From the NCBI RefSeq assembly GCF_046105845.1, contig NZ_CP151004.1: a DNA stretch of 64,000 bases. The stretch is one strand, 5' to 3'. The notes below the pieces were generated by a model. It did not search any database. It worked only from the letters and a program-made list of their open reading frames with translations, and had not been told where the DNA came from. Positions 47,538 through 50,700 of the stretch are shown here, piece after piece (the first letter of the stretch is position 1; every line of letters begins with the position of its first letter). Source of the DNA: Escherichia coli (GTDB lineage: Bacteria > Pseudomonadota > Gammaproteobacteria > Enterobacterales > Enterobacteriaceae). The position numbers were made by a program, and so were the translations under genes.

Positions 47538-47856
47538 AGTAGTCTCCTGAGGTTTTATTAGAATCATTATGTTTGAGCGTAGCGTTGGTAACGCTACCAG
47601 GCGCGTGAATGTTACCCCATTTTATGTATGGACATGTAGCGAAAACTACAACCTTGTCGTTCGCTTTGGCATCATTTTCATTATAAAGACGGAATTTTGC
47701 ATCAGCTTCTCATCAAGAAAAACAACTAAAAAATCAATCACAATACTTGTGCATTTCTTTAAACAGTTTTTAAAAACTGACTCCGGGTATGGAGCTATGG
47801 GTATTTTCTCTACCCAATGCTTTTAACAGCAATTAATTTCATAGGATGAAAGCTCA

Positions 47857-50448
47857 ATGCATCAATCTGGTTCTGTTTCTCTTTGTCGTTCCGCAATATC
47901 TGTTCTGGTGGCTACAGCGTTATATTCACCCATAGCATTGGCATCAACAGTTGAGTATGGTGAGACAGTTGATGGTGTTGTCCTGGAAAAAGATATCCAG
48001 CTGGTTTATGGGACCGCCAATAATACGAAAATTAATCCTGGCGGAGAACAGCATATTAAAGAATTTGGTATAAGTAGTAATACTGAAATTAACGGCGGGT
48101 ATCAGTACATTGAAATGAATGGCACCGCAGAATACTCAGTATTAAATGATGGTTATCAAATTGTTCAAATGGGTGGCGCAGCAAACCAGACTACCCTCAA
48201 TAATGGTGTGCTACAGGTTTATGGCGCAGCGAATGATACCACCATTAAAGGCGGGCGCTTAATTATTGAAAAAGATGGGATTACCGTCTTTGCCGCTATC
48301 GAAAAGGGAGGATTACTGGAGGTTAAAGAGGGGGGATTAGCATTTGCGGTAGATCAGAAAGCAGGCGGTGCGATTAAAACAACCACGCGGGCCATGGAGG
48401 TATTCGGAACAAACCGTCTCGGTCAGTTCGATATCAAGGATGGTATTGCTAATAATATGCTGTTGGAAAACGGCGGAAGTTTGCGAGTTGAAGAAAATGA
48501 CTTCGCTTATAATACCACTGTGGATAATGGCGGCTTACTGGAGGTTATGGATGGCGGGACTGCAACTGGCGTTGATAAAAAAGCAGGCGGAAAATTAATT
48601 GTCTCAACGAATGCGCTGGAAGTGAGTGGTACAAACAGTAAAGGCCAATTTAGTATAAAAGATGGTGTGTCCAAAAATTATGAACTGGATGATGGTTCCG
48701 GGCTCATTGTTATGGAGGATACGCAGGCCATTGACACTATCCTTGATGAGCATGCCACTATGCAATCGCTGGGAAAGGATACTGGTACGAGAGTGCAGGC
48801 AAATGCGGTATATGATCTCGGTCGATCAGATCAGAATGGAAGTATAACGTATTCCTCTAAAGCCATCTCTGAAAATATGGTTATCAACAATGGCCGCGCT
48901 AATGTCTGGGCTGGCACGATGGTTAACGTTTCAGTCAGAGGGAATGATGGCATTCTTGAGGTCATGAAGCCGCAAATAAATTATGCACCCGCTATGTTGG
49001 TGGGTAGTGTCGTGGTTTCTGAGGGCGCTTCTTTAAGAACGCATGGTGCCGTGGATACCAGCAAAGCGGATGTTTCGCTCGAAAATAGCGCATGGACCAT
49101 CATTGCCGATAACACTACGACGAACCAAAACACTCGCCTCAACTTAGCCAACCTTGCGATGTCCGGCGCAAATGTGATTATGATGGCTGAGCCAGTGACT
49201 CGTTCATCAGTGACGGCAAGTGTGGAAAATTTCATTACGTTGACCACCAATACCCTGTCGGGAAACGGCAATTTTTATATGCGTACCGATATGGCTAATC
49301 ATCAGAGCGATCAGCTCAACGTCACCGGTCAGGCAACAGGTGATTTCAAAATATTCGTGACGGACACCGGTGCCAGCCCGGCAGCAGGAGATAGCCTTAC
49401 ACTGGTAACAACGGGCGGCGGTGATGCTGCATTTACGTTGGGCAATGCCGGAGGCGTTGTTGATATCGGTACGTATGAATATACCTTGCTGGATAATGGC
49501 AACCATAGCTGGAGCCTCGCAGAGAATCGCGCGCAAATTACCCCTTCAACCACTGATGTGCTGAACATGGCAGCAGCACAACCGCTGGTATTTGATGCAG
49601 AACTGGACACCGTGCGTGAGCGTCTTGGTAGCGTAAAAGGCGTTAGTTACGATACGGCGATGTGGAGTTCGGCAATTAACACCCGCAACAACGTGACCAC
49701 TGATGCGGGAGCTGGCTTTGAGCAAACATTGACGGGCCTGACGCTCGGTATCGATAGCCGTTTCTCCCGTGAAGAAAGCAGCACAATTCGCGGCTTGTTC
49801 TTTGGTTACTCTCATTCTGATATTGGTTTTGATCGCGGCGGCAAAGGCAATGTCGATAGCTACACCCTGGGGGCTTATGCCGGTTGGGAGCATCAGAACG
49901 GTGCCTATGTTGATGGAGTGGTGAAAGTTGACCGTTTTGCCAACACCATCCATGGCAAGATGAGTAATGGGGCAACAGCGTTTGGCGATTACAATAGTAA
50001 CGGCGCGGGTGCTCATGTCGAGAGCGGGTTCCGTTGGGTTGACGGATTGTGGAGTGTTAGACCCTATCTCGCCTTTACCGGCTTTACCACAGATGGTCAG
50101 GACTACACGTTATCAAATGGCATGCGCGCGGATGTGGGAAATACCCGCATATTACGCGCTGAAGCAGGAACGGCGGTAAGCTATCACATGGACCTGCAAA
50201 ACGGTACGACGCTGGAACCCTGGCTGAAAGCCGCCGTGCGTCAGGAATACGCCGATTCTAACCAGGTGAAAGTTAATGACGATGGCAAATTTAATAATGA
50301 TGTGGCTGGAACCAGTGGCGTTTATCAGGCTGGGATAAGGTCATCGTTTACCCCGACGTTAAGCGGTCATTTGTCTGTCAGCTATGGCAATGGCGCAGGG
50401 GTAGAATCACCGTGGAATACTCAGGCGGGTGTGGTCTGGTCGTTCTGA
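47857..50448 (+). CDS. yejO: AIDA/pertactin-like autotransporter (type Va secretion), intact, 863 aa
   Basis: N-terminal signal peptide, Gly/Asn-rich beta-helix passenger with tandem repeats, C-terminal beta-barrel ending ...VVWSF; sits between narP and proL where K-12 carries the yejO pseudogene. Confidence 0.85.
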   Translation: MHQSGSVSLCRSAISVLVATALYSPIALASTVEYGETVDGVVLEKDIQLVYGTANNTKINPGGEQHIKEFGISSNTEINGGYQYIEMNGTAEYSVLNDGYQIVQMGGAANQTTLNNGVLQVYGAANDTTIKGGRLIIEKDGITVFAAIEKGGLLEVKEGGLAFAVDQKAGGAIKTTTRAMEVFGTNRLGQFDIKDGIANNMLLENGGSLRVEENDFAYNTTVDNGGLLEVMDGGTATGVDKKAGGKLIVSTNALEVSGTNSKGQFSIKDGVSKNYELDDGSGLIVMEDTQAIDTILDEHATMQSLGKDTGTRVQANAVYDLGRSDQNGSITYSSKAISENMVINNGRANVWAGTMVNVSVRGNDGILEVMKPQINYAPAMLVGSVVVSEGASLRTHGAVDTSKADVSLENSAWTIIADNTTTNQNTRLNLANLAMSGANVIMMAEPVTRSSVTASVENFITLTTNTLSGNGNFYMRTDMANHQSDQLNVTGQATGDFKIFVTDTGASPAAGDSLTLVTTGGGDAAFTLGNAGGVVDIGTYEYTLLDNGNHSWSLAENRAQITPSTTDVLNMAAAQPLVFDAELDTVRERLGSVKGVSYDTAMWSSAINTRNNVTTDAGAGFEQTLTGLTLGIDSRFSREESSTIRGLFFGYSHSDIGFDRGGKGNVDSYTLGAYAGWEHQNGAYVDGVVKVDRFANTIHGKMSNGATAFGDYNSNGAGAHVESGFRWVDGLWSVRPYLAFTGFTTDGQDYTLSNGMRADVGNTRILRAEAGTAVSYHMDLQNGTTLEPWLKAAVRQEYADSNQVKVNDDGKFNNDVAGTSGVYQAGIRSSFTPTLSGHLSVSYGNGAGVESPWNTQAGVVWSF

Positions 50449-50458
50449 TAACAGACAA

Positions 50459-50489
50459 TAAACAGGCCGTGATGTGTCGCGGTCTGTTT
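50459..50489 (+). terminator. Stem-loop downstream of yejO
   Basis: aaacaggccg-tgatgtgt-cgcggtctgttt (one mismatch) about 10 nt after the yejO stop. Confidence 0.5.
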
Positions 50490-50510
50490 ATCGAATTAAA
50501 TGCAGATATA

Positions 50511-50540
50511 AAAAAACCAACCGTAAAGGTTGGTTTTTTT
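50511..50540. terminator. Rho-independent terminator of proL (bidirectional hairpin)
   Basis: aaaaaaaccaacc-gtaaa-ggttggtttttttt immediately 3' of the tRNA on the minus strand. Confidence 0.8.
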
Positions 50541-50549
50541 TGGGATTTT

Positions 50550-50626
50550 TGGTCGGCACGAGAGGATTTGAACCTCCGACCCCCGACACCCCATGACGGT
50601 GCGCTACCAGGCTGCGCTACGTGCCG
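50550..50626 (-). tRNA. proL: tRNA-Pro (anticodon GGG)
   Basis: Minus strand reads CGGCACGTAGCGCAGCCTGGTAGCGCACCGTCATGGGGTGTCGGGGGTCGGAGGTTCAAATCCTCTCGTGCCGACCA, a 77-nt tRNA with genomically encoded CCA. Confidence 0.95.
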
Positions 50627-50700
50627 ACTCGTGGCTGTTAATACTACCGTTTTCCACACCGATTGCAAGTAAGATATTTCGCTAACTGATTTATAATTAA

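Follow-up and report, generated by a model that had tools for sequence, protein, structure and literature searches.

The narP–yejO–proL–yejM Junction: An Unoccupied, Undamaged Allele of a Strain-Variable Spot in the Escherichia coli Chromosome

Results

We analyzed a stretch of 64,000 nucleotides of Escherichia coli DNA (contig NZ_CP151004.1 of the assembly GCF_046105845.1), called here the window. A preliminary description, made from the sequence without database searches, had listed narP, a spacer, an autotransporter gene and a tRNA gene at one junction of the window and had suggested that this junction is a strain-variable insertion point. Each of these elements was found at the coordinates given there, and the locus is built as follows (positions are those of the window).

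45803–46855, plus strand: ccmH, the gene to the left of narP
46890–47537, minus strand: narP, nitrate/nitrite response regulator, the left border of the locus (open reading frame; labelled narP in all matching genomes)
47538–47856: spacer between narP and yejO, 319 bp
47538–47647: putatively ancestral part of the spacer, on the narP leader and promoter side, 41.8% GC
47648–50501, plus strand: yejO block, about 2.85 kb, delimited by homology to two Escherichia lineages, L052 and L086
47857–50448, plus strand: yejO, intact gene of an 863-aa AIDA-type autotransporter (open reading frame, Pfam)
47920–47923: TTAT, the IS5 target of K-12, uninterrupted in the window
48062–48066: AATTT, the IS2 target in strain AW1.7, uninterrupted in the window
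48293–48368 and 48515–48590, plus strand: two 76-nt repeats of the passenger domain, 71% identical, 222 bp apart
48329–49332: first segment deleted in ST131-type alleles, 1,004 bp, present in the window
49790–50418: second deleted segment (ST131-type and GPEC1031-type alleles), 629 bp, present in the window
50221–50223, plus strand: codon 789 of yejO, TGG in the window
50458–50491, plus strand: hairpin (inverted repeat) right after the yejO stop codon, belonging to the yejO block
50510–50540: perfect hairpin with a 13-bp stem between A and T runs (inverted-repeat search)
50542–50595: unoccupied attachment region, overlapping the 3' part of proL
50550–50626, minus strand: proL, tRNA-Pro(GGG) (ARAGORN; Rfam tRNA model, 54.9 bits, E = 2.9e-10)
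50701–52461, minus strand: yejM, the right border of the locus (open reading frame; its stop codon begins at 50701)

The start codon of narP lies at 47535–47537 on the minus strand, and the annotated orthologues of this gene are 648 bp long. The intergenic region next to it, described earlier as AT-rich and 319 bp long, measures exactly that length and has 36.7% GC, against 52.0% for the entire window. The gap between yejO and proL is 101 bp, the gap between proL and yejM is 74 bp, and the 3' end of proL points toward yejO. The hairpin between the A and T runs looks like a two-way terminator serving both proL and yejO, judging by its sequence; it is kept beside proL in Citrobacter and in other Escherichia. 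The linkage of proL and yejM is kept throughout Enterobacterales. An Rfam scan of positions 46800–51000 returned the tRNA only; matches to HPnc0260 and RNAI over the terminator region were sub-threshold (E about 0.6) and were put down to chance. The promoter scan gave fewer matches than in shuffled sequence, none of them within the spacer between narP and yejO. Three small open reading frames (47569–47826, 50412–50672 and 50378–50668) matched nothing in Pfam and were set aside as spurious.

The yejO gene of the window is an uninterrupted frame of 863 codons. Using Pfam, we found an Autotransporter beta-domain (PF03797, E = 5.6e-46) at residues 602–841, that is, a C-terminal beta-barrel, and in the passenger the domains AIDA (PF16168, E = 6e-50) and Pertactin (PF03212, E = 2.3e-44). 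From this domain layout, YejO is predicted to be a type Va (AIDA-I-type) autotransporter. A database entry titled "autotransporter YejO [Escherichia coli]" has exactly the protein sequence of the window. A Shigella origin of the window was considered, as the best identity over 24 kb reached only 98.8–98.9%, and was set aside in view of this entry.

We also assessed whether the window carries any trace of mobile DNA. The duplicated tRNA 3' end, which the preliminary description had proposed to look for, was searched for over the full 64 kb with a 28-mer (up to 3 mismatches) and a 16-mer (up to 2 mismatches), and no second copy was found. BLAST of IS5, IS2 and IS1 against the window gave nothing at E ≤ 1e-3, and the same was true of two satellites, a 19-kb element and a 43.6-kb prophage; all these queries were copies from other strains' version of this locus. 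A 4.2-kb segment of the window aligned colinearly and in a single piece to many other genomes. The window holds no integrase, no tRNA-end repeats and no element DNA between yejO and proL, as a genomic island would. The reading given earlier, that integrase, tRNA-end repeat and IS remnants are all lacking and that this strain holds the undisrupted state, agrees with these results: the tRNA end is single-copy, the proL site is empty and the yejO frame is whole. The window is an unoccupied, undamaged allele of a known strain-variable spot of the E. coli chromosome.

The state of the locus in other strains was determined in 5,425 complete E. coli genomes from RefSeq; this set over-represents laboratory K-12 and clinical clones, and its frequencies are not population frequencies. 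A 501-bp probe across proL was unbroken in 4,827 genomes and split in 598 (11%), with breakpoints at window positions 50508, 50542 and 50548. Occupied and empty alleles coexist, and the splits at the 3' end of proL bear out the earlier suggestion of a tRNA-associated variable point. Junction probes for satellites with a P4-type integrase matched 450 and 448 genomes (about 450), and the junction probe for the 19-kb element of strain W2-5 matched 19. Lambdoid prophages occupy proL in about 130 genomes by subtraction and in at most 247 by junction probe; the true number may lie below the latter figure, since prophages elsewhere contain similar DinI-plus-tRNA-like segments.

The satellites at proL in CFSAN027343, UTME-6 and UID2309220033 are 8.2–8.75 kb long. 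Satellites of this kind carry an integrase, an AlpA-type helix-turn-helix regulator, Icd-like, ash, and a helicase or a DUF927 primase; a small terminase and a capsid gene are present in some of them only. The 8.75-kb satellite, for example, has genes for an integrase, Icd-like, ash, a RepA-type helicase, a small terminase and a capsid. The W2-5 occupant is a 19-kb mobilisable element with a relaxase and further recombinases, and NRZ99027-2 has a 43.6-kb lambdoid prophage at proL.

In occupied genomes, the 3' end of the tRNA is duplicated around the element, and the integrase gene lies inside the element beside one junction. The flanking repeat of the NRZ99027-2 prophage has a 54-bp core equal to the attachment region listed above, and that of the W2-5 element has a 21-bp core equal to window 50548–50568. 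The crossover of the satellites begins at 50548. Their junction on the yejO side holds a degenerate tRNA-end copy of about 25 bp, which consists of TTTGG, a 4-bp gap and CACGAGAG. A copy as degenerate as this does not fix the exact satellite core.

The P4-type integrase genes begin about 180–220 bp from proL, and the lambdoid integrase of NRZ99027-2 lies near the far end of the prophage. The satellite integrases are 82–94% identical to each other and 55–57% identical to the W2-5 integrase; all of them have the P4-type layout of Arm-DNA-bind_3, Phage_int_M and Phage_integrase domains (Pfam). The lambdoid integrase shows no sequence relationship to the P4-type integrases at proL. We infer that the integrases named here catalyse the integrations seen. 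It turned out that the 77-nt sequence of proL is identical in 118 species representatives of Enterobacterales, and that an integrase of the P4-type family stands directly beside this identical proL in 16 of the 118, from many genera. Free lambdoid phage genomes, and also Gifsy-2, contain a tRNA-like segment (84–88% identity in the free phages), which might be a candidate attP for proL.

The second kind of variation concerns yejO itself. Its 5' part is interrupted in 436 of the 5,425 genomes, and the IS5 of K-12 accounts for most of these cases. This IS5 (about 1.2 kb) is flanked by a 4-bp duplication of TTAT, which matches the window sequence in codons 22–23; an IS5K interruption of yejO in K-12 has been reported (PMC11005336). 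The preliminary description was right in placing an IS5 at this locus in K-12; the element sits inside yejO and outside the spacer. Besides the IS2 of AW1.7, which has duplicated its AATTT target, a second IS2 site was found in strain EC25, near window 48165. The yejO locus of GDSC2227PM contains an IS1, and in O15_8X an IS1 together with an adjacent deletion extends from the spacer into yejO, the left end of this IS1 being at window 47670. Codon 789 is TGA in the five strains examined with this change (W2-5, CFSAN027343, O103:H2 FWSEC0007, TK3888 and ETEC-2265), and other copies of the gene are frameshifted.

About 1,146 genomes (21% of the 5,425) match the 4.2-kb probe over less than 80% of its length. 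All low-coverage genomes that we sampled have the ST131-type deletions of yejO or a close variant of them, in agreement with the reported absence of yejO from ST131 (PMC5654935). The 629-bp deletion takes out most of the beta-barrel. A smaller, in-frame deletion of 222 bp in ET120 and NRZ99027-2 leads to a 789-aa form of the protein and is explained by recombination between the two 76-nt passenger repeats, whose spacing it matches. Tandem Repeats Finder, run over 47500–50750, reported nothing; these dispersed repeats surfaced only in the repeat search.

In total, at least nine separate events inactivate yejO. Five are IS insertions (one of IS5, two each of IS2 and IS1); the others counted are the stop at codon 789, a frameshift and two types of deletion. 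None of the surveyed types of damage is present in the window. Among eight colinear loci picked blind to annotation, yejO was intact in four and a pseudogene in four. Thus, an intact yejO as in the window is common yet far from universal.

The comparison was extended to relatives of E. coli. In several Citrobacter species and in the Escherichia lineages L052 and L086, narP lies 184–212 bp from proL and yejO is absent. The flanks in L052 and L086 are 94–96% identical to the window; the homology ends at 47647 and restarts at 50502 or 50504, and in place of the intervening DNA these lineages have 25–28 bp that resemble the Citrobacter spacer (four Citrobacter species were compared). The block delimited in this way consists of 209 bp of upstream DNA with 34% GC, yejO and 53 bp downstream. 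The remaining spacer segment, 47538–47647, is common to the yejO-less Escherichia lineages and is recognisable in Citrobacter. The block contains no integrase, and a search for boundary repeats found none.

Discussion

The locus is strain-variable through two unrelated processes, integration at the 3' end of proL and decay of yejO. We observed directly how the locus is built, that its site is empty, how frequent the alleles are in the genome set, how the junctions read and how the region is laid out in other species. We consider it very probable that the window shows an empty proL site and an intact yejO, set in a history of three layers: integration at proL, decay of yejO and, beneath them, insertion of the yejO block.

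In the outermost layer, the 3' end of proL would serve as the attachment site for elements with a tyrosine integrase. Integration would duplicate a core that starts 2–8 bp past the tRNA end, and the element would land between proL and its terminator while the tRNA gene is regenerated. The cores are nested and may serve at least two unrelated integrase lineages, P4-type and lambdoid.

In the second layer, yejO behaves like a dispensable gene of an adhesin-type autotransporter that is probably decaying in many lineages. It would be lost through transposition of IS elements, through point mutations, through deletions at microhomologies and through recombination of the passenger repeats with one another. 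It is conceivable that repeated loss is advantageous, for example if phages use YejO as a receptor or immune responses target it, although we regard this as doubtful against neutral decay.

As for the deepest layer, the comparison suggests that the yejO block is an old, lineage-specific insertion, which would have entered, on the way to E. coli proper, between the promoter region of narP and the terminator of proL. We infer an insertion rather than a loss from the layouts in just two Escherichia lineages and Citrobacter. As an observation apart, the inactivations of yejO strike a block that E. coli would have gained only after the split from its nearest relatives.

Three alternatives were weighed. 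The block might be all that is left of a decayed island once integrated at proL, one that has since lost its integrase and repeats; it is lineage-specific, stands beside a tRNA hotspot and has less GC toward its 5' end (43.7% in the first 1 kb, besides the AT-rich upstream DNA). However, its right edge (50501/50503) lies beyond the proL terminator, 46–48 bp from the tRNA end and away from the region 50542–50552 where present-day elements cross over, and the terminator beside proL is the ancestral one, common to Citrobacter. Neither a tRNA-end repeat nor an integrase fragment is present in the window. Because of these missing marks and the position of the right edge, such a fossil island is possible but unsupported, and we regard it as unlikely. 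It is still less probable that the AT-rich spacer is a hotspot of its own, a preferred IS target or attachment site. Its base composition, with the lowest GC in the 209 bp proximal to yejO, would suit such a role, and one event, the IS1 of O15_8X, does begin there. But in 21 of the 22 loci that were read, exactly 319 bp separate narP from yejO, and the lone exception is this IS1-associated deletion; therefore, the spacer itself is not an insertion hotspot. The IS5 of K-12, both IS2 copies and the other events fall within the coding sequence of yejO, and no integrase-bearing element was seen in the spacer. The variability proposed in the preliminary description thus holds for proL and yejO and fails for the spacer.

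One could also regard the whole junction as an ordinary, conserved housekeeping one, in which a tRNA gene and an AT-rich spacer occur by chance. In most genomes (4,279 of 5,425, or 79%), a single place does match 80% or more of the 4.2-kb segment, and the constant spacer and the preserved proL–yejM linkage point the same way. Against this stand the 598 genomes split at proL by elements of 8–44 kb with integrases and flanking repeats, the roughly 1,146 with large yejO deletions and several independent IS insertions. Invariance across strains, which would have told against the preliminary description, was looked for and clearly fails; the proL splits, deletions and interruptions of yejO refute this reading, and practically no chance is left for it. 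The three-layer history remains our explanation of the locus.

The proL site resembles the tRNA hotspots with P4-type integrases known in Enterobacteriaceae: the target is a tRNA 3' end, occupancy varies between strains, the integrase adjoins the regenerated tRNA, and a partial tRNA-end repeat marks the far junction. Unlike hotspots that hold islands, the proL site of the window is empty. By annotation and Pfam, the elements of CFSAN027343, UTME-6 and UID2309220033, which lie in other strains, resemble PICI and P4-like satellites in gene content and in their size of 8–9 kb. The same tRNA gene adjoins SPI-12 of Salmonella (PMC7143636) and has been named as a prophage site in O121:H19 STEC (PMC8767318). 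In contrast to SPI-12, known here from the literature, the E. coli occupants of proL are satellites, a mobilisable element and lambdoid prophages. One literature search on the proL attachment site and its integrase brought up unrelated systems only.

The IS5K pseudogene of K-12 is the same gene at the same chromosomal position as yejO of the window, which, unlike it, has an uninterrupted TTAT target and a complete frame. Among the AIDA-I-type autotransporter adhesins of E. coli, restriction to particular lineages is common, and the genes are often pseudogenes. YejO is like them in its AIDA repeats, pertactin domain and beta-barrel, and in its patchy intactness between lineages.

Conclusions

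All the main points are already in the literature or in routine annotation, and the locus is ordinary. For this strain, the result is that the proL attachment site is free and that yejO is potentially functional, which means little beyond bookkeeping. This may be of use in strain typing or in choosing a neutral or integrase-addressable chromosomal position, and, because the K-12 copy is dead, in picking a strain for the study of YejO. For E. coli, the survey yields a rough occupancy of proL, about 11% of complete genomes, mostly by phage satellites.

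Strain lineage and the ccmH-narP gap

The window was compared over 24 kb (36000-60000) with 5,426 complete genomes of E. coli. The closest shared only 98.8–98.9% identity with that segment, and no genome reached 99%. The exact YejO protein of the window was found on six E. coli contigs. The lineage of this strain seems to be thinly represented among complete genomes.

We also compared the short gap between the 3' ends of ccmH and narP:

window 46856-46889, ccmH-narP gap
L002 550-770, the locus compared with it

In the window and most other strains the gap is 34 bp long and holds one hairpin. 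A further segment of about 176 bp is found there in K-12, BL21 and E400634; it consists of REP-type palindromes (a BIME-like element) with a copy of the terminator hairpin on each side.

The proL locus in other genomes

In other genera the cargo of the narP-proL interval differs. The interval is about 3 kb long in Citrobacter amalonaticus S646 (L107), and in Salmonella enterica subsp. arizonae (L079) more than 8 kb lies beyond proL, without narP. Nothing resembling YejO was found in the cargo of these two loci.

Further features were noted in two of the E. coli strains with elements at proL:

L012 5980-10315, NRZ99027-2, yejO to the lambdoid prophage
L004 25445-29593 and 33326-35912, W2-5, regions of interest in the 19-kb element

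In NRZ99027-2, yejO and the prophage are separated by a stretch of about 3 kb. It contains two hypothetical genes, a DUF2971 gene and an integrase fragment that is frameshifted, and suggests that proL was occupied in tandem or successively. The W2-5 element contains two neighbouring tyrosine recombinase genes and a large hypothetical gene, which together look like a nested recombinase cluster. Its genes annotated as an ABC-three-component system are candidate defence cargo.

Several lambdoid phage genomes have a segment 84–88% identical to the proL terminator and the 3' two-thirds of proL, placed near their DinI-like end:

window 50508-50606, matched part of proL and its terminator
KM389287.1, PP925827.1, PP925821.1, phage records
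NC_010393.1 44257-44334, Gifsy-2
L015 6001-6092, a further compared locus

The segment is also present in Salmonella Gifsy-2 and on pZ1323HEC0010-3, a 44.6-kb circular "plasmid" which resembles the genome of a lambdoid phage and has ParA. The segment may be an attP that has diverged, or it may be left over from earlier residence at proL.
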